Below, piece by piece: positions 2,644-52,767 of a DNA stretch of 64,000 bases (position 1 is the stretch's first letter; the number at the start of each line of letters is the position of its first letter). A program made the translations under genes and the position numbers. Source of the DNA: Candidatus Rokuibacteriota bacterium (GTDB taxonomy: Bacteria; Methylomirabilota; Methylomirabilia; Rokubacteriales; CSP1-6); assembly GCA_023249095.1 (NCBI GenBank), contig JAHFDK010000008.1:9322-73321 (forward strand). Direction: 5' to 3'. A model generated the notes under the pieces. That model saw only the letters and a list, made by a program, of their open reading frames with translations. It did not search any database and was not told the origin of the DNA.

Positions 2644-4056
2644 ATGGCCTCGCCGGTCCGCGTACGATTCGCGCCGAGCCCGACCGGCCACCTCCACGTC
2701 GGCGGCGCGCGCACCGCGCTCTTCAACTGGCTGTTTGCCCGCCACCACCGCGGCGCCTTTGTCCTCCGCATCGAGGACACGGACCGCTCGCGCTCGACCG
2801 ACGAGAACATCGTCGCGATCGTCGACGCACTCCAGTGGCTCGGTCTCGACTGGGACGAGGGGCCGCCGACGCCGGGCTATCGTCAGACCGAGCGGTTCGC
2901 GATCTACCGCGAGCACGCCCAGCGGCTCCTCGCCTCCGGACGGGCCTACTACTGCGACTGCCCGCCCGAGCTTCTCGATCGCGAGCGGGGGGTCGCCCAG
3001 CAGCGGGGCGAGACGTTCCGGTATTCCGGACGCTGTCGCGACCGGGGCCTCGGTGCCGGCGCGCTACGCCTCCGGATTCCCACCGCGGGCGCCACGGTGG
3101 TGAACGATCTCATCCACGGGCCGGTCACGTTCGAGCACAGCCAGCTCGACGACTGGATCCTTGTCCGCACGGACGGAACGCCCACGTACAACTTCTGCGT
3201 CGTCGTCGACGACGTCACGATGAGCATCACCCACGTCATTCGCGGCGACGACCATCTGTCGAACACTCCCAAGCAGATCCTCTGTTACGAAGCGCTCGAC
3301 TACGCCGTCCCCGAGTTCGCCCACGTGTCGCTGATCCTGGGCAAGGATCGAAGCCGCCTCTCGAAGCGTCACGGCGCCACGTCCGTCCAGGCCTTCCGCG
3401 ATTCGGGCATCCCCGCCGACGCGCTGGTGAACTACCTGGCGCGGCTCGGCTGGTCGCACGGCGACCAGGAGGTGTTCTCCCGCGCCGAGCTCGTCGAGCT
3501 CTTCGACATCAAGAACGTCGCCTCGTCCGGCGCGGTCTTCGACGCGACCAAGCTCGAGTGGCTCTCGCAACTCTATCTGAAGACGATGGACGGTGCGCGG
3601 CTGGCGGAGCTGGCCGAGCCGTTCGTCAGGGCGGTTGGACTCACGCCGCCACCCGATCGCCCCCGGTTCATCGCGATGCTCGACACGCTTCGGGAGCGTG
3701 CGAAGACCCTGGTCGAGCTGGTCGAGCAGGGGCGGTTCTACTTCGAGCGCCCCGCGGCGTACGAGGCGAAAGCCGCGCAGACGCTCCTGACGGTCGAGGG
3801 CGCTCGGCGCCTCGGACTCGTGATCGCGCGGCTCGAGGGGGCGCCCGAGTTCACGGTGGCGGCGATCGAGCGCGTCTTCCGGGCGCTCACCGAGGAGCTC
3901 GGGCTCAAGCTCGTCGACCTCGCGCAGCTCGCGCGCCTCGCGGCGACCGGCCGCACGGCGTCGCCGCCCATCTTCGACGTGCTGGCCCTGGTCGGGCGCG
4001 AGGAGTCGCTGGTGCGCCTGCGCCGCGCGCGCGAGGCCGCGGAGCGGACGGCGTGA
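2644..4056 (+). CDS. gltX: Glutamate--tRNA ligase
   Basis: RFAPSPTGHLHVGGARTALFNW...LRIEDTD class-I HIGH region, colinear with GluRS along its length. Confidence 0.9.
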   Translation: MASPVRVRFAPSPTGHLHVGGARTALFNWLFARHHRGAFVLRIEDTDRSRSTDENIVAIVDALQWLGLDWDEGPPTPGYRQTERFAIYREHAQRLLASGRAYYCDCPPELLDRERGVAQQRGETFRYSGRCRDRGLGAGALRLRIPTAGATVVNDLIHGPVTFEHSQLDDWILVRTDGTPTYNFCVVVDDVTMSITHVIRGDDHLSNTPKQILCYEALDYAVPEFAHVSLILGKDRSRLSKRHGATSVQAFRDSGIPADALVNYLARLGWSHGDQEVFSRAELVELFDIKNVASSGAVFDATKLEWLSQLYLKTMDGARLAELAEPFVRAVGLTPPPDRPRFIAMLDTLRERAKTLVELVEQGRFYFERPAAYEAKAAQTLLTVEGARRLGLVIARLEGAPEFTVAAIERVFRALTEELGLKLVDLAQLARLAATGRTASPPIFDVLALVGREESLVRLRRAREAAERTA

Positions 4057-4840
4057 GGCTCCTGCTCGCGCGCCACGGGCAGTCGGTGTGGAACCAGGTG
4101 CGGAAGTTCCAGGGCACCAACGACGTCGGCCTCTCCGACCTCGGGCGCGCGCAGGCCGAGGCGCTCGGGCGTGCCCTCCGCGGCGGCTATCGCGTCGCGG
4201 CCGCGTACGTGAGCCCGATGCGCCGGGCCATGGACACGGCGGAGATCGCGCTGGCCGGGACCGGGATCCCGCTGGTGCCCATCCCCGAGCTGCGCGAGCT
4301 GTCACTCGGCGAATGGGAGGGCTGCACGGTCGACGAGATCCGAGCGCGCGAGGGCAATCCGTACCTCGCATGGGTCCGGTCACCGCTGGATTGCCCGCCG
4401 CCCGGCGGCGAGCCGCTGCCGGACGTCTGCGCCCGCGTTCTGCACGCGATCGGACGGATCGGCGCGGACCATCGAAACGGGGATGATGTCCTCGTCGTCG
4501 CGCATGGCGGGGTGATCAGCGTGTATCTCTGCCACTTGCTCGGCGTCTCGTTCAACGCGCTCTGGCGAATGCGGATCGACAACGCCTCGCTGACGATCGC
4601 CCGGCCGCCGCGCCTGGTGTCGGTCAACGACACGACGCACTTACCGCCTACGCCTCGCACCATGTGGTTTGACGTCTCGGGGGCCGGGGGCGGCCCGGGG
4701 GGTGCGTCCCCCTCGACCCGTGTCGTCAGGACTGACCCGATCACCGCGCGTCCGACACAGACGCCGCCGGTTGCAGCTGGCGTGGTCGAGGGGGACGCAC
4801 CCCCCGGGCCGCCCCCGGCCCCCGAGACGGAGAGAGTTCC

Positions 4841-4844
<4 letters not shown>
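4053..4844 (+). CDS. Histidine phosphatase family protein (phosphoglycerate-mutase-like), with a C-terminal extension read through a foldback element
   Basis: GTG start at 4053 overlaps the gltX stop (GTGA). It carries the RHG catalytic motif (LLLARHGQSVWN) and the downstream H of the family. The conserved domain ends near 4650, but the frame stays open through the palindromic element to TGA at 4842-4844. Confidence 0.65.
4674..4828. repeat. Foldback element copy A: perfect 45-bp inverted arms (4674-4718 / 4784-4828) around a 65-nt core
   Basis: Right arm is the exact reverse complement of the left arm (gtctcgggggccgggggcggcccggggggtgcgtccccctcgacc). The core's reverse complement has termini resembling those of copies B and C. 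Confidence 0.8.
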
Positions 4845-6788
<1,944 letters not shown>

Positions 6789-6994
6789 ACGCTGACACCG
6801 TCCGGCTCCTGACCGCCAGCGATCGCGGCGCGGCGGCCCGGCTCCGGCGGACGCTGCGGCAGCTCGGGTTCGCGGATCCGGGCGGGGCGGCGGCCAACCT
6901 CGAGAGCCTCACGCCGACGCCGCGCGACGCCGAGCTCCTGGCGCCGGCTTTTCCACGCCTCCTGGCCGAGCTCGCGGGGGCGCCGGACCCCGAC

Positions 6995-9934
6995 ATGGCG
7001 CTCAACAACCTCGAGCGCTACGCGGCCGCCGTCGACCGGTCAGTATTCTTCCGCACGCTCGCCGAGCATCCCGGTGCAGTACCGCTGCTGGCGCGCCTGG
7101 GCGGCTCGAGCCAGGTGCTCGCCGACGTCTTGCGCCGGCGCCCCAGCAGCCTCGCGTGGCTGCTCGAGCCCGCGACGATGCGGCTCTGGTTCGCCGAGGA
7201 CCTGGCGGCCGACCTGGCGCAGACGCTCGGCCCGTTCGAGGCGCGGGAAGCGCGGATGAACGCGCTGCGGCGTTTCAAATACCGCCATCTCCTGCGCATC
7301 GGCGCGCGCGATCTCCTGGGCGACGCCGACCTCTCGGGGACGACCGAGGAGCTGTCGCATCTGGCCGACGCGTGCATCGGGCAGGCGCTGCGCGAGGCCG
7401 CGGCGACCGTGTCCCAGGCGTACGGGGCCCCGCTCGGCGCCGACGGATCCGAGACCGGGCTCGCGGTCATCGCCATGGGCAAGCTCGGCGGCGACGAGCT
7501 CAACTACTCGTCCGACATCGATCTGATGTTCGTCTACGGGGCCGACGGCGAAACGACGGGCGGAGGTGCCGGCGGCCGCCTGGCCAACGGCGAGTATTTC
7601 GCGCGCCTCTGCCGCGAGCTCGTCGGCTTGCTCGAAGAGATCACCGACGAAGGCTCTGCCTTCCGCGTCGATCTGCGGCTCCGACCCGAGGGGCGCATGG
7701 GGGGGATCGTCCTGTCGCTCGACGGGTACCGCGAGTACTATCGGGATCGCGCCGAGCTGTGGGAGCGCCAGGCCCTCATCAAGGCGCGCATCGCCGCCGG
7801 TGACGCGGCCGTCGGCGCTCGCTTCCGGGAGCTCGGGTGCCGGACCGTCTATCGTCCCGGACTCGACGCGCGCATCGTCCCGGCCATCCGCGCGATGAAG
7901 GCGCAGATCGACAGTGCCGTGCGCGCCAAGGGTAACGAGGCGACCAACGTCAAGCTCGGGCGAGGTGGGATCCGCGAGATCGAGTTCATCGTCCAGGCGC
8001 TCCAACTCCTGTACGGCGGCGACGACCCGTGGTTGCGCGAGGCGAACACGCTGAAGGCGATCTTCCGGCTCACCGAGCGCGGGTACCTGGCGCCCGACCT
8101 CGGCCGGCGGCTCTCCCGGGCCTACGAGCATCTCAGAACGGTCGAGCACCGGCTGCAGATCCTGCACGAGTTCCAGACCCACACGCTTCCCAAGGACGGG
8201 CTGGAGCTCGGGCGCGTCGCCCGGCGCGTCGGCATCCAGGCGCCGCCGGCGCGCGCGGCGCGGGAGTTCCAGGCGCGCCACCGGACGGTCACGACGTCGG
8301 TGCACCGCGCCTTCCGGGAGTTCTTCGCGGTCCGCGAGCTCGCGCCGCGCCGCCGACCGCGCCTGACGAGCCTGACGGCGCTGCGAGCGACCGGGTTCAA
8401 GGATCCCGAGCGCGCGCGGCACAACTTGCAGCTGATCCTGGAGGGCCGCCCACTGGTGCCGTACGCGGCGCACCTCTCCGCCACGCTCGCGCGCCTCTAT
8501 CCGATGCTCCTCGACGCGCTCTGGAAGAGCCCCGATCCGGATGAGGCGCTGAATCAATTCGAGCGGCTCCTGGCGGCAGCCGGACCGCGAGCCGGACTCG
8601 TGGAGCTTCTGGTCAAGGATCCGGATCTCCTGCTCGGGCTCGTCAAGGTCTGCGCCGGGGGCGATCTCCTCACCGAGCTCCTGATCGCCCAGCCCGAGCT
8701 GCTCGCGTCGCTGGCCAATCCCGAGCGGCTCCTGGCCCGAAAGTCCAAGGCAGGCCTGCGCCAGGCGCTGGCCTCCGTCTTCGTTCCCGGGACGACACCG
8801 GTCGAGCGCCGCGATCGGCTACGCCGCGTGAAGCAGGCCGAGGAGCTGGCCATCGTCTGGCGCTACGTCCTCGGGGTCACCACCATCGACGGGTATTCAC
8901 GCGAGATGACCGCGCTGGCGGAGACGACCCTCGCGACCGGCTGGCTCCTGGTCCAGGAGCCGCTCGTCGAGCGCTACGGCGTGCCGCGCGACGCGTCCGG
9001 GCGATTCATCCCCGCGGTCATCGTGGGGCTCGGCAAGCTGGGCGGCCGCGAGCTCGTCACCGGCTCCGACCTCGACCTGTTCGTCGTCTTCGGTGAGGAC
9101 GGCACGACCGACGGCGCCGAGCGGGTCGACGCCCATTGGTTCTACAGCCTGGCGGCCGAGCGGCTGGCCGGCGCGCTCGGCGACATCACGTCGGCGGGTG
9201 TCGCCTTCCCGGTGGACCTGCGGCTACGGCCCGGCAGCAAGGGGAGCGGCTTCGCCTCGAGCGTCGCCGCGCTCGAGCGTTACTATCTGGAGCATGGCGA
9301 CCTGTGGGAGCGCCAGACGTTGACGCGCGCCCGGGTGATCCTCGGGGACCGCGCCCTCACCAGGCGCGTGCGCCCGGCGCTGCGCCGGCTCGTCTACGGC
9401 GAAGCGCTTCCGCGCCCGGCGCTCAAGGAGATCACGGAGGTGCGCACGCGGATGGAACGCGAGCTCGGACGGGAGACCCGCGGGCGCGTCCACGTGAAGT
9501 ACGGACGCGGCGGCCTCGTGGACGTGGAGTTCCTCGTCCAGGCGCTCCAGCTCGTCCACGGTCACCGCCACCCCGACGTGCGGCGGTTCACGACGGCGGC
9601 GGCGCTCAAGGGCCTCTCGCGCGCCGGTGCCCTCGAGGCGGTCGCGGCGTCAGAGCTCCTCGAGCGCTACCGCTTCCTCCGGCGCGTGTCCGCTGCGCTC
9701 CGGCTCCTCGGCGCGCGTCCGTCAGACACCCTCGAGCTGGCCGGTCCCATGCCCGCGCGCGTGGCGACCGCTCTCGGCTACGAGTCGCGGCAAGCGTTCC
9801 TCGAGGCCTACCGCGAGCACACGACCGCCGTGCGCGCCGTCTACGAACGAAGCCTCGGGCCGACCGCCGACCGGAGCCCCAGGTTGGCCGCCGACCGGAG
9901 CCCCGGGTTGACTACCGACGGAGCCCCGGGTTGA
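6995..9934 (+). CDS. glnE: Bifunctional glutamine synthetase adenylyltransferase/adenylyl-removing enzyme
   Basis: 979 aa from the first ATG with two GlnE nucleotidyltransferase domains (GKLGGDELNYSSDIDL, GKLGGRELVTGSDLDL). The same frame is open and GlnE-like back to about 6791 directly after glnB but contains no ATG/GTG/TTG, so the true start is unresolved. Confidence 0.8.
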   Translation: MALNNLERYAAAVDRSVFFRTLAEHPGAVPLLARLGGSSQVLADVLRRRPSSLAWLLEPATMRLWFAEDLAADLAQTLGPFEAREARMNALRRFKYRHLLRIGARDLLGDADLSGTTEELSHLADACIGQALREAAATVSQAYGAPLGADGSETGLAVIAMGKLGGDELNYSSDIDLMFVYGADGETTGGGAGGRLANGEYFARLCRELVGLLEEITDEGSAFRVDLRLRPEGRMGGIVLSLDGYREYYRDRAELWERQALIKARIAAGDAAVGARFRELGCRTVYRPGLDARIVPAIRAMKAQIDSAVRAKGNEATNVKLGRGGIREIEFIVQALQLLYGGDDPWLREANTLKAIFRLTERGYLAPDLGRRLSRAYEHLRTVEHRLQILHEFQTHTLPKDGLELGRVARRVGIQAPPARAAREFQARHRTVTTSVHRAFREFFAVRELAPRRRPRLTSLTALRATGFKDPERARHNLQLILEGRPLVPYAAHLSATLARLYPMLLDALWKSPDPDEALNQFERLLAAAGPRAGLVELLVKDPDLLLGLVKVCAGGDLLTELLIAQPELLASLANPERLLARKSKAGLRQALASVFVPGTTPVERRDRLRRVKQAEELAIVWRYVLGVTTIDGYSREMTALAETTLATGWLLVQEPLVERYGVPRDASGRFIPAVIVGLGKLGGRELVTGSDLDLFVVFGEDGTTDGAERVDAHWFYSLAAERLAGALGDITSAGVAFPVDLRLRPGSKGSGFASSVAALERYYLEHGDLWERQTLTRARVILGDRALTRRVRPALRRLVYGEALPRPALKEITEVRTRMERELGRETRGRVHVKYGRGGLVDVEFLVQALQLVHGHRHPDVRRFTTAAALKGLSRAGALEAVAASELLERYRFLRRVSAALRLLGARPSDTLELAGPMPARVATALGYESRQAFLEAYREHTTAVRAVYERSLGPTADRSPRLAADRSPGLTTDGAPG

Positions 9935-45249: not shown

Positions 45250-46266
45250 GTGCTCCTGCTGGCCCTCCTGGCGACCGGCTGCGCCGGCGTCGGAGCTCCC
45301 GTGGCTGGTGCCCCGGCCCATCACCGCGAGCGCGGGTACGCGAACCTGAATCCGTCGCATGTGACCGCCGGCGCCTGGACACGTTTCACGTTCTTCGTCT
45401 CACGCATCTGGGCCAGCACCTTCACGCCGCGGACCGCGAACTTTCCCCAGGTGGCGAGCGACCTCGGGACGATCCATGACAGTCGCGGCGCCGTGACCGT
45501 GACCTGGGTCGGTCATGCGACCCTGTTGATCCAGCTGGACGGCGTCAACATTCTCACCGACCCTCACTGGTCGGCCCGAGCGAGCCTGGTGTCGTTCGCG
45601 GGACCGCGGCGAGTGTCGGCCCCCGGTCTCAAGTTCGAAGATCTACCGCCGATCCACGCGGTCGTGATCTCGCATGACCACTACGATCACCTGGACGAGG
45701 CGACGGTCAGACGGCTCGCCGCGGAGCACCGGCCCCGGTTCTTCGTCCCGCTCGGGCTCAAACAGTGGTTCGCAGACGTCGGCATCACCGATGTCGACGA
45801 GCTCGACTGGTGGGGCAAGCGCGAATTGCGTGGGCTGACGTTCACCTGTGTCCCGGCCCAGCACTTCTCGGGGCGCACTCTCTGGGATCGGAACCGCCGC
45901 CTCTGGAGCGGCTGGGTCGTCGCCGGCCGAGCCAAGCGTCTCTACTTCGCAGGGGACACGGCCTACTTCGACGGGTTCAAGGAGATCGGAGCCCGGCTCG
46001 GCCCGTTCGACCTCGCAGCGGTGCCGATCGGCGCCTACGTGCCCGCGGTCATCATGAAGGCCAGCCACACGACGCCGGAGGAGGCGCTCCGGGCCTTGGC
46101 CGACGTCCGTGGGCAGCGATTGGTTCCGATCCACTGGGGCACGTTCGATCTCGCCGAGGAACCGCTCGACGAGCCTCCGCAGCGGCTCGTCGCCGAAGCT
46201 CGCCGTTTGCGCCTCGACCTCGATCGGATCTGGGTTCTCAAGCACGGCGAAACACGTCGCTGGTGA
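45250..46266 (+). CDS. MBL-fold metallo-hydrolase lipoprotein
   Basis: Lipobox (LLALLATGC) then a beta-lactamase-fold Zn hydrolase (HDHYDHLD, ...HWGTFDL). Start is GTG 45250 or CTG 45229. Confidence 0.65.
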   Translation: MLLLALLATGCAGVGAPVAGAPAHHRERGYANLNPSHVTAGAWTRFTFFVSRIWASTFTPRTANFPQVASDLGTIHDSRGAVTVTWVGHATLLIQLDGVNILTDPHWSARASLVSFAGPRRVSAPGLKFEDLPPIHAVVISHDHYDHLDEATVRRLAAEHRPRFFVPLGLKQWFADVGITDVDELDWWGKRELRGLTFTCVPAQHFSGRTLWDRNRRLWSGWVVAGRAKRLYFAGDTAYFDGFKEIGARLGPFDLAAVPIGAYVPAVIMKASHTTPEEALRALADVRGQRLVPIHWGTFDLAEEPLDEPPQRLVAEARRLRLDLDRIWVLKHGETRRW

Positions 46267-46267
46267 C

Positions 46268-46414
46268 GGGATGGGGTCGGCGAGGGCGGGCGGGGTCCCT
46301 GGCTCGACCCGACTGCTGCGATGCGCTGCGACGAAATTCTTCAGCCTGAGGCGATGCAGCGCTGACTACACGGGTCGAGCCAGGGACCCCGCCCGGCCCT
46401 CGCCGACCCCATCC
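46268..46414. repeat. Foldback element copy B: 43-bp inverted arms (46268-46311 / 46371-46414, one 1-nt indel) around a 59-nt core
   Basis: Arms gggatggggtcggcgagggcgggcggggtccctggctcgacccg and its reverse complement. Core begins ACTGCTGCGAT and ends CGCTGACTACA, matching copy C. Confidence 0.85.
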
Positions 46415-46489
46415 TGTTTACCGCCTGGGTCCCTGATATGGGCCTGGCTGAGCGCAACCCGACCCGGCTGACGAGGCGCGTCTCTAGCG

Positions 46490-51763: not shown

Positions 51764-52030
51764 ATGGCAGCCCAGCGCGGCATCGGGCTGATCCTCCTGG
51801 TCGTCATCGCCGGCTTGGTCGTGGGCTCCCTTCTCGGCGAGATTCTCGGCAGCCTTCTCCCGGCCGGCCGCGCCCAGGACTTGATCACGCGCGGGCCGAC
51901 GATCGGCCTCGCGCCGCCCGCGACACTGGATCTGCGATTCCTGGCCATGACCTTCGGCCTGAGCCTCAAGGTCAATCTGGTCGGCGTCGTGGGGATCGTC
52001 CTCGCCGCGGTCACTCTTCGCCGTCTCTAG
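51764..52030 (+). CDS. DUF4321-like small membrane protein
   Basis: 88 aa with two TM segments, GSLLGEILGSLLP and a conserved LDLRFLAMTFGLSLKVNL pattern, as recalled for DUF4321. Confidence 0.5.
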   Translation: MAAQRGIGLILLVVIAGLVVGSLLGEILGSLLPAGRAQDLITRGPTIGLAPPATLDLRFLAMTFGLSLKVNLVGVVGIVLAAVTLRRL

Positions 52031-52183
52031 GCGGCTCGCCGGGGGGAGGGCGTGAGGGGACCGGCCGGTATCCGACTGCTGCGATCCGGGACTTGAAGAT
52101 CATGTGCGCAGCGCGAGGTCAACGCTGACTACACGGATCCCGGCCGGTCCCCTCACGCCCTCCCCCCGGCGACCCGACTAGAG
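52025..52183. repeat. Foldback element copy C: 38-bp near-perfect inverted arms (52037-52074 / 52134-52171, one mismatch; imperfect extension to about 50 bp) around a 59-nt core
   Basis: Arms cgccggggggagggcgtgaggggaccggccggtatccg and its reverse complement. Core begins ACTGCTGCGAT and ends CGCTGACTACA. The extended arms reach the upstream TAG stop and the maf ATG. Confidence 0.85.
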
Positions 52184-52185
52184 CC

Positions 52186-52767
52186 ATGAGGTTGATCCTG
52201 GCGTCGGCATCCCCGCGACGGCGGGAGCTTCTGCGTGGAATTTGTCCGGAGTTCGAGGTGATACCGAGCGAGATCGAGGAGACGCTGGACGGCGGGCCGA
52301 CCCCCGACGCCGTCGCCGAGCTCGCCCTTCGCAAGGCTCGGGCGGTCGCCGCCTGCGCCGGCGCCGCGATCGTCCTGGCGGCGGACACGATCGTCGTCAT
52401 CGACGGCATGCCACTCGGCAAGCCGTCCGGCCGCGAGGAAGCCCGCGACATGCTCGTCCGCTTGCGGGGCCGACTGCACGAGGTCATGACGGGCGTCGCA
52501 ATCGTGGACGGCACGACCGGCCGCGCCGCATCCACGACGGTCGTGAGCCGCGTGATCATGGCAGCGTACCCGGATGCGACGATCGAGACGTACGTGGCAT
52601 CGGGCGCGCCGCTCGACAAGGCCGGCGCCTACGCGATTCAGGATCTTCAGGGCGCACTGGTCGACGGCATCGTCGGCTCGTACACCAACGTCATCGGGCT
52701 GCCCGTGGAGACGACGCGCCGGCTTTTGGAAGGATTCGGCGTCGTCAGCGAGCGGTCGGGGCCTTGA
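52186..52767 (+). CDS. maf: Maf-like nucleoside triphosphate pyrophosphatase (septum formation protein Maf)
   Basis: LILASASPRRRELL N-terminus plus AADTIV and GKP motifs. Confidence 0.85.
   Translation: MRLILASASPRRRELLRGICPEFEVIPSEIEETLDGGPTPDAVAELALRKARAVAACAGAAIVLAADTIVVIDGMPLGKPSGREEARDMLVRLRGRLHEVMTGVAIVDGTTGRAASTTVVSRVIMAAYPDATIETYVASGAPLDKAGAYAIQDLQGALVDGIVGSYTNVIGLPVETTRRLLEGFGVVSERSGP

Follow-up and report, generated by a model that had tools for sequence, protein, structure and literature searches.

What kind of sequence can fill an entire intergenic spacer, from the stop codon of one gene to the start codon of the next, with a single long inverted repeat, how could it have arisen, and what would it mean for the downstream gene? 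This question is raised by the junction between a DUF4321 gene (88 amino acids, positions 51764..52030, plus strand) and the maf gene (193 amino acids, 52186..52767, plus strand) of a Candidatus Rokuibacteriota bacterium. The 64,000 nucleotides of DNA that we analysed are called the window in the following. Both gene assignments were upheld by Pfam, and the Maf domain begins at residue 2 of the protein, so that the ATG at 52186 is the true maf start. All 155 nucleotides between the DUF4321 TAG and this ATG belong to one foldback element (155/155 nt), here called copy C, as an initial annotation of this DNA had claimed.

A foldback family at conserved gene junctions

The inverted arms of copy C (52025-52074 and 52134-52183) are 50 nt long and 94% complementary. 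One mismatch, a T·C at 52069, interrupts their inner 38 nt, and two others, at 52035 and 52031, bring the arms from 38 to 50 nt. With one further mismatch, pairing spans 52023-52185, corresponding to 52-nt arms, and complementarity then ends sharply at 52022/52186. The whole foldback measures ~160 bases and encloses a 59-nt core (52075..52133, plus strand), in which two invariant termini, ACTGCTGC (52075-52082) and GCTGACTACA (52124-52133) on the plus strand, flank a variable interior without conserved structure. The G-rich left arm (52023..52074, plus strand) covers the last two DUF4321 codons and the TAG (52028-52030), and the terminus of this ORF, CTC TAG at 52025-52030, thus lies within the element. 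The C-rich right arm (52134..52185, plus strand) holds the entire stretch where the maf ribosome-binding site would be, and its last base directly precedes the maf ATG. The predicted RNA fold of copy C reaches -124.5 kcal/mol (z = -11.9 versus 200 shuffles), and 0 chance matches are expected for its arm and core patterns. Coordinates and fold statistics therefore confirm the arm and core geometry that had been described between the TAG and the maf ATG.

Copy C is not alone in the window. A covariance model built from related copies assigned 90 bits to copy C, 89 bits to copy B and 42 bits to copy A (minus strand), and nothing in the rest of the 64-kb window scored above noise, which leaves exactly three family members in this DNA. 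The membership of B and C in one family, proposed before, is supported by this model and extends to A. Copy B (46266..46417, plus strand) consists of arms at 46266-46311 and 46371-46417, with one 1-nt bulge, and a core at 46312-46370 that has its first 11 and last 11 nt in common with the core of copy C. Its left arm starts at the final base of the TGA of a Lactamase_B-fold gene, and the genes flanking it are convergent. Copy A (4673..4829, minus strand) has perfect 46-nt arms (4673-4718 and 4784-4829) around a 65-nt core (4719-4783), the orientation of which is opposite to B and C. It sits in the 3' tail of a His_Phos ORF (4053-4844) that stays open across the element and ends in a GTGA shared with the start of a Na/Pi-cotransporter gene (4841). 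This in-frame read-through to the GTGA overlap is found in the window and in two relatives, L085 and L088, with spacers of 168 and 57 nt.

The homologues of Maf and of the Na/Pi-cotransporter point to a soil lineage of Candidatus Rokubacteria (Rokuibacteriota / Methylomirabilota), and no database record matches this Maf protein exactly. Orthologous loci with conserved synteny were compared over a range of Maf identities from 95% down to 74%. In relatives down to a Maf identity of ~78-87% (range 78-98%), copy C occupies the DUF4321-maf junction and has unchanged core ends, and its structure recurs in dozens of assemblies that were made independently (JGI, ENA and NCBI). The latter finding shows that the element is no assembly artefact, a concern raised by five contigs (L001, L004, L005, L025 and L075) that break, carry N-gaps or show odd rearrangements at such elements. 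Considering in addition the z-scores of the three copies (-12 to -14.5 versus shuffles), the agreement of three data sources and the covariation described below, the probability of a chance palindrome or an artefact appears negligible. L005 and L025 are deletion derivatives, and N-gaps and contig ends also fall at elements; in practice, conserved operon junctions that hold such an element become points at which metagenome assemblies are broken or scrambled. L075 has 107-nt arms that end at the TAG of a PUA-methyltransferase gene; we rejected them as a clean case of arm extension, because 32 codons of the other gene are replaced as well and the arms may reflect either a real rearrangement or a chimera.

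Beyond the window, our first pattern for genome collections (ACTGCTRCGA...GCTGACTACA) was too strict at its left end and retrieved just 4-5 true loci along with chance matches. True matches of the strict core pattern were confined to Rokubacteria MAGs, with ~2 copies each; the other matches lay in unrelated taxa, had no arms and were due to chance. When metagenomes were scanned with an improved pattern, we obtained ~40 true contigs at four junctions, namely B, C and the new sites D (3' of a periplasmic-binding-protein gene) and E (flanked by a Usp/PCP_red gene and a radical-SAM/SPASM gene). The core termini thus recur at four or more sites in relatives, in line with what had been predicted for a dispersed family. 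We also sought sites D and E in the window as further empty sites, and their genes are absent from it. Plasmid and phage collections gave no match, and ~610 kb of related DNA contained hardly any additional long foldbacks. The family is small and lineage-restricted, occurring in a clade of soil Rokubacteria, and the literature searched held no paper on such repeats in Rokubacteria or Methylomirabilota.

The expectation that arms coincide with gene ends was borne out for the left arm, which lies at the stop codon at B, C and E and 5 nt after it at D. For the right arm, a position at a start codon is firm at C only. At site E, a right arm ending 2 nt before an ATG was discarded as an example, as this ATG opens only a 17-18-codon ORF that is absent in one lineage.

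The conserved unit of the family, core plus inner inverted repeats, is noncoding, ~80-115 nt long and bounded by terminal inverted repeats, as is generally expected of a MITE. It is polymorphic for presence and absence, with copies at sites A-E and empty sites in L023 (C and B) and L087 (A). The genes neighbouring the family sites are all housekeeping genes and include no transposase candidate and no recombinase. The flanks of sites A, B, D and E share no consistent direct repeat, and the CTAG flanking copy C is self-palindromic and hence uninformative. As neither a transposase, nor a target-site duplication, nor an autonomous parent element was found, our use of the term mobile element is based solely on the dispersed copies and the empty sites. 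With ~2 strict copies per MAG and three family members in 64 kb, the copy number is very low for a MITE.

Fixed loop ends and freely varying arms

We compared 18 distinct alleles from four sites by mean pairwise identity. Identity is 99-100% at the loop ends, (G)ACTGCTGC and GCTGACTACA(C), 43% in the interior of the loop and 64% in the inner arms; across the family, the loop termini read GACTGCTGC / GCTGACTACAC. The interior shows no conserved or covarying structure, and the sole pairs predicted there involve the invariant bases. From this strict conservation of the loop ends in orthologues we infer a sequence-specific recognition by a putative protein or nucleic-acid partner. With its conserved loop ends and free arms, the family reverses the usual logic of bacterial foldbacks, in which the arms are conserved.

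The arms themselves differ along their length. Their inner ~25-30 nt are homologous across sites C, D and E, with GGGGnGGGGGTGCCnnCCGGGATCCG adjoining the core, and therefore belong to the element. The outer arms are site-specific, and the stem bases differ (CTCTAG, ACGGGA, CGTCTC). In the left arm of copy C, the inner ~27 nt belong, judging by this homology, to the element, and what lies outside them was probably spacer before.

Despite this sequence divergence, the arms remain complementary. At site C, 96.7% of the cells are paired across 12 alleles, and both sides have changed in 16/52 pairs, including transversions (C-G↔G-C, U-A↔G-C), with just three G·U cells. None of 500 shuffles (0/500) reached this covariation, and slid controls were 39-49% paired. 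Arm complementarity is thus actively maintained. Among the arm mismatches, we detected no preference for G·U on the transcribed (sense) strand, which is weak evidence, since the counts are non-independent. In sequence terms, the pattern looks like the wholesale recopying of one arm from the other and not like stepwise RNA compensation. This family also advises caution, as strong covariation in a hairpin is by itself no proof of a functional RNA.

How do these elements relate to known bacterial repeats? In ERIC/IRU, Correia/NEMIS and RUP elements, the inverted arms are conserved and define the family, a genome has tens to hundreds of copies, and TA is typically duplicated. Our elements resemble ERIC, Correia and RUP sequences in their length of ~100-160 bp, in being almost fully self-complementary with long mRNA hairpins, and in their dispersed copies in transcribed spacers near gene ends, with empty sites in relatives. 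They differ in that the arms vary by site, the loop ends are invariant, each genome holds only a handful of copies, and no target duplication was seen; the family-wide terminal inverted repeat with TA duplication that marks Correia and ERIC elements was not found.

REP dimers, REPINs and BIMEs are built from 20-40-bp units with conserved stems and one terminal tag per unit, reach high copy numbers and are often linked to a RAYT (PMC3733652). They share with our elements the folding of two inverted units into one large stem-loop, as in HH dimers with a conserved 20-100-bp spacer (PMC3733652), and the location 3' of ORFs, between unidirectional or convergent genes. Tag-like sequences are also present: GTAG occurs at one loop end, on the reverse strand of GCTGACTACA (CG/TGTAGTC), and the arm of copy A starts with CGTC. 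In contrast to REPs, the stems described here are 46-58 bp long and site-variable, and the tag-like GTAG is confined to one end, the other being ACTGCTGC. A conserved 20-40-bp palindromic unit is missing, as the arms differ (inner-arm identity 0.64), and the copy number is low (3 in 64 kb, ~2 strict copies per MAG, few extra foldbacks in 610 kb). No RAYT was found in the DNA examined.

Integron attC sites likewise form imperfect palindromes at or overlapping the preceding stop codon, which vary in sequence and keep their structure. They possess conserved R''/R' boxes (GTTRRRY) at the stem base and are arranged in cassette arrays beside an integrase, whereas the stem base of our elements is unconserved and they are located between housekeeping genes in conserved synteny, with no integrase. 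Compared to these systems, the inverted conservation pattern with fixed loop ends and free arms is unusual, as are the low copy number of elements that have long been retained in orthologous positions and the scale on which signatures of template switching, described below, are seen.

Origin and probable rewriting of the arms

At site A, the sequence between ...TGGTTTGA and GTGAC... could be compared in three states. L087 is empty (CGTGTCCGGGGCGGGGGG + GAGCGCC). L088 carries a perfect 46-bp palindrome without a core (CGTGTCGGAGGCTGGGGGTGCCG/CGGCACCCCCAGCCTCCGACACA). The window and L085 carry arms and core, with the same outer sequence, an additional 23 nt of arm per side and the 65-nt core, so that L088 and the window differ by 111 nt (inner arms plus core). 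The empty site of L087 already has the G-rich outer left-arm sequence of copy A. From this series it follows that the outer left arm is the ancestral flank and the outer right arm its inverted copy. Empty, intermediate and full states thus persist in natural populations, and the sequence comparison describes the arms as two-layered, element-borne inside and flank-derived outside. It should be noted that L088 could equally be a precursor in which the palindrome came first and the core was inserted afterwards, which would reverse the order of events.

The initial annotation had suggested that insertion duplicates one flank in inverted orientation and that the arms derive from gene-boundary sequence. 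For the outer arm at site A this suggestion was substantiated by L087, whereas the inner ~25-30 nt at C, D and E are element-borne. At C, only the outermost 6-8 nt overlap gene sequence, and the CTAG there is self-palindromic. Nor need the duplication have accompanied insertion, since covariation, arm extension and core inversions fit repeated template switching after insertion (PMC8794818, PMC8604942). As to which arm is ancestral, the answer at site A is the left one, in its outer part. At site C, the relative L023 (Maf identity 74%) has an empty junction with a TAA stop, a 23-nt spacer and a GTG start, which is too diverged to tell the older arm of copy C itself. L023 lacks the palindrome together with the core; a core-less relative that keeps the palindrome, which would have spoken against the proposed insertion, was thus not encountered there.

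In the Ripley model, template switching homogenises the arms of inverted repeats and gives multi-base compensatory changes, extends stems by copying adjacent sequence, and inverts the spacer (PMC8794818, PMC8604942, PMC13100816). All three outcomes are seen here, as paired changes at site C, flank extension at site A and spacer inversion at site B. We therefore favour, with moderate confidence, the explanation that the family is a low-copy, MITE-like foldback element in which replication template switching homogenises and extends the arms and occasionally inverts them. Copy C would then be an old, vertically inherited member of a small foldback family whose unit combines ~10-30-nt inverted repeats with a core of 59-65 nt, the ends of which are invariant (GACTGCTGC ... 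GCTGACTACAC). It may have inserted into a short DUF4321-maf spacer such as the 23-nt spacer that exists at the empty site. Template switching between the arms would repeatedly rewrite one from the other, a presumed mechanism for the observed pattern, in which complementarity is kept and sequence drifts. The palindrome would grow outward whenever an inverted copy of one flank is written opposite, as observed at A and as probably happened at C. Selection may have halted the growth of copy C at the maf ATG, since the loss of this start codon to the spreading arm would be detrimental. The left arm may extend into the 3' end of DUF4321 because it would serve there purely as template. Template switching could also have inverted the core at some sites, in agreement with the inversions observed at site B.

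With template-switch quasipalindromes, our elements share multi-base compensation without G·U intermediates, stem extension and spacer inversion. The described cases are mostly short, with 4-20 bp per arm and a spacer of just a few bases, compared to arms of ~50 bp and a 59-nt spacer here. Unlike those quasipalindromes, the spacer ends are strictly conserved, and the process acts on a dispersed repeat family. The elements may thus represent natural template switching on a large scale, with all three predicted outcomes in one small, tractable family and at sizes well above those of earlier cases. A separate observation concerns L007 and L008, between which the B-site element is the sole substitution hotspot, at ~10-20% compared to 0.38% overall divergence. 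This exceeds what template switching alone explains and possibly results from allele replacement by recombination.

The cores at a given junction are not always of the same type. L006 has an unrelated 65-nt type-2 core at both the B and the C junction, the latter within outer arms homologous to those of the window. L022 combines a type-1 core at C with two type-2 copies at B, and the L007 and L089 lineages carry a third core subtype at C. A kinship of type-2 with type-1 cores was considered and dropped, as the model detects none. Simple vertical inheritance does not account for these differing core types at the same two junctions. Furthermore, the spacers of both L022 and L006 include a copy of the maf 5' end, 70-76 nt in length; in L022, this copy belongs to a tandem duplication of 193 nt that shows GAT microhomology.

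Unrelated type-1 and type-2 cores within conserved outer arms at the same junction (L006 versus the window at C) could also be understood if the palindrome came first, that is, if short GC-rich hairpins or palindromes arose behind stop codons from the flanks by snap-back synthesis and a small mobile core, equipped with short inner repeats, then inserted specifically at the hairpin tip. Some IS families are known to target REP or terminator hairpins. This order of events would agree with the perfect core-less 46-bp palindrome of L088, which is exactly 111 nt shorter than the window at site A, and with the small GC-rich self-complementary stretches that follow the stop codons at the empty sites of L023. 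Yet neither the 64-kb window nor ~610 kb of related DNA contains other long core-less palindromes, and no transposase candidate was found. L088 is equally well explained by a symmetric central deletion between palindromic GGCC/CCGCGG repeats, and deletion derivatives do exist (L005, L025). We therefore judge an origin of the palindrome before the core to be quite unlikely.

The orientation of the core, determined after orienting the contigs by their flanking genes, differs between sites. At site B, which lies between convergent genes, both orientations occur among relatives: L063 has the same 59-nt core and near-identical arms as copy B of the window, flipped, and L007, L009, L010, L047 and L056 are flipped relative to L008 and L033, indicating at least two independent inversions. 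At sites C, D and E, between co-directional genes, the orientation relative to transcription is uniform in ~20 alleles. Flips in otherwise near-identical strains, together with copy A being inverted relative to B and C, could indicate an inverton, in which a recombinase flips the core between the arms and switches the expression of neighbouring genes. The absence of flips in ~20 alleles at C, D and E is hard to reconcile with such a switch, as is the lack of arm conservation between sites, which is not what recombinase sites show. There is no promoter-like sequence in or near the core and no recombinase among the neighbouring genes; of the features of an inverton, only the two orientations were found, and these at site B only. 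Moreover, template switching or recombination between inverted repeats of 50 bp is expected to invert the spacer as a side effect (PMC8604942), and we consider a site-specific switch very improbable. That the core keeps one orientation at C, D and E may point to a strand-specific function, which the template-switch model does not require.

Possible consequences for maf translation

A hairpin of this size directly upstream of a start codon could influence expression in several ways. The terminator role that had been proposed for it found no support: a T-run follows none of the three copies (A, B, C), and the 59-nt loop of copy C is unlike that of a short-looped terminator. The GC hairpin with short loop and U-tract that defines intrinsic terminators is thus missing, and our consensus scan detected no promoter in or near the core and no intrinsic terminator. 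An effect of the hairpin on maf translation, also suggested before, appears plausible. In the predicted fold, a very stable helix ties up the 15-20 nt that precede the maf ATG, and the DUF4321 TAG lies opposite them at the stem base.

In the host, the DUF4321-maf transcript would therefore contain a hairpin of ~-120 kcal/mol that places the TAG beside the ATG and hides the region where maf translation is initiated. On reaching the DUF4321 stop codon, a terminating ribosome would open precisely the stem base. Maf translation is thus probably dependent on ribosomes that finish DUF4321, and we regard such translational coupling as the most likely functional consequence of copy C. In the L007 and L089 lineages, DUF4321 is cut to 13 codons; the remnant is in frame and its stop is still at the stem base, and this arrangement of the sequence fits the coupling idea. 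In rpmI-rplT of E. coli and in the RNA phage MS2, an mRNA helix conceals a downstream start and couples its translation to that of an upstream cistron over a long range. As in these systems, the predicted helix joins an upstream stop to a downstream start, with the initiation region paired and open to release by a terminating ribosome. It differs in being far longer and more stable, and in originating from a repeated element instead of gene-specific sequence. If the hairpin does gate maf translation, a selfish repeat would have been accommodated by, or exploited for, translational coupling.

The element could, alternatively, be a cis-regulatory RNA of the host, in which a clamp helix under selection presents a conserved internal-loop motif to a protein or RNase and sets the expression, processing or coupling of the cistrons. 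We consider this unlikely, although several observations would suit it: the loop termini are invariant in orthologues that have diverged everywhere else, the arms covary strongly, at B, C and E the left arm has its first base at or inside the stop codon of the preceding gene, the core orientation with regard to transcription is the same in all C, D and E alleles, and the 13-codon DUF4321 remnant of L007 and L089 stops in frame at the stem base. But the core lacks conserved or covarying structure, and the arms show almost no G·U intermediates and no sense-strand preference for G·U. Copy A is reversed within an operon, the B-site core flips freely, and different core types occupy the same junction across lineages. 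Moreover, a perfect RNA duplex of 50 bp is a substrate of RNase III and not a typical regulator, and the element matches no Rfam family. Over the whole window, Rfam gave 0 matches at the gathering threshold, and at E ≤ 10 the locus gave only sub-threshold matches to generic GC hairpins (miRNA-like); no tRNA or tmRNA genes were found. A small ribozyme was rejected, as CUGANGA fits, by eye, copy A alone and the GAAA/UH elements are absent.

We tentatively suggest, as a rather speculative extension, that the invariant loop ends are a recognition module of a new kind, where a protein encoded by the host or by the element would bind the top of the long hairpin, in DNA or in RNA. On this view, the family could represent a new type of mobile element that targets hairpin tips, or else a domesticated clamp that enforces translational coupling by bringing an upstream stop and a downstream start together at the base of one helix. 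The latter, if true, would explain both the fixed orientation of the elements inside operons and the in-frame 13-codon remnant of DUF4321.

Cores and arms of the foldbacks

At the same two junctions that carry foldbacks B (between the convergent Lactamase_B-fold and PUA-methyltransferase genes) and C (between DUF4321 and maf) in the window, other lineages hold a second type of core, which is 65 nt long (TCCGTCACCCACT...GGGGGTCCCACTAC), unrelated to the type-1 core of the window copies and not detected by the type-1 covariance model. Foldbacks with this type-2 core lie at 55-213 and 5390-5645 of the related locus L006, whose two cores share 61 of 65 positions, and at about 640-790 and 920-1060 of L022. 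Relative to the upstream gene, the core has the same orientation in all four copies.

The arms of the window copies and of all related elements combine a G-rich 5' arm with a C-rich 3' arm on both strands, irrespective of core orientation. The G-rich 5' arms in the window are located at 4673-4718, 46266-46311 and 52025-52074, the last of these being the left arm of copy C with 25 G and 14 C. The arm at site A was seeded by an ancestral flank that is itself a G-run.

Two strains, L007 and L008, diverge by 0.38% over 20 kb and encode identical Maf proteins; the sole substitution hotspot of the locus is the B-site foldback (L007:4827-5001; L008:4860-5037), which differs by about 10-20%, with arms that are still complementary and a flipped core. 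In a further locus (L075:1763-2035), an inverted copy of the spacer lengthens the B-site arms from 41 nt to 107 nt. One end of these extended arms falls exactly at the PUA-methyltransferase TAG; at the other, they take the place of the final ~32 codons of the Lactamase_B-fold gene. This rearrangement is either genuine or a chimera created during assembly.

Metagenome contigs often end, contain N-gaps or show arm or core deletions exactly at family elements (L001:1; L004:3458-3467, an N gap; L005:1180-1195; L025:3025-3042; L046:1; L052:1). The family is thus a recurrent assembly breakpoint, and some of its apparent variants may be assembly artefacts.

Foldbacks and flanking reading frames

A stretch of 70-76 nt from the maf 5' coding end is repeated inside the orthologous DUF4321-maf spacers of two lineages (L006:5435-5504; L022:6808-6883). 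The L006 copy sits in the loop and matches the real maf 5' end at 64 of 70 positions, the original ATG now being ACG, and the L022 copy belongs to a 193-nt tandem duplication of core, right arm and maf 5' end with a GAT microhomology at its junction. At L007:9795-9836 and L089:6793-6834, the DUF4321 gene has shrunk to a 13-codon remnant (GTG ATC GCC ... CTC TAG), which has kept its frame across diverged lineages and its stop at the base of the foldback preceding maf.

The histidine-phosphatase (His_Phos) ORF at window 4053-4844 runs through the entire foldback A, extends about 56 codons past the domain and ends with a TGA overlapping the GTG start of the Na/Pi cotransporter (window 4841). Its reading frame is unchanged in L088, where site A carries the palindrome only; in L087, where site A is empty with a 25-nt spacer, both genes are called as a single 750-aa fusion.

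At site E, an ORF of 17-18 codons (MDPNCHARVASGQASRRD; L042:6876-6932, L053:8134-8187) begins 2 nt past the element and ends with a TGA that overlaps the GTG at which the radical-SAM/SPASM gene probably starts. This short ORF may be fortuitous, since it is missing from L074.

Nested and empty sites

A family member of the GWA2_73_35 MAG (L015:422-572) is nested within a second, outer 29-nt inverted repeat (375-622), giving a two-tier foldback. In the relative L023, the C and B junctions (6978-7000 and 2054-2090) are empty and carry short, GC-rich self-complementary stretches (CGCG...CGCG; GCGGGCACCGCCCGC) immediately after the stop codons, which are possible seeds or targets for foldbacks.
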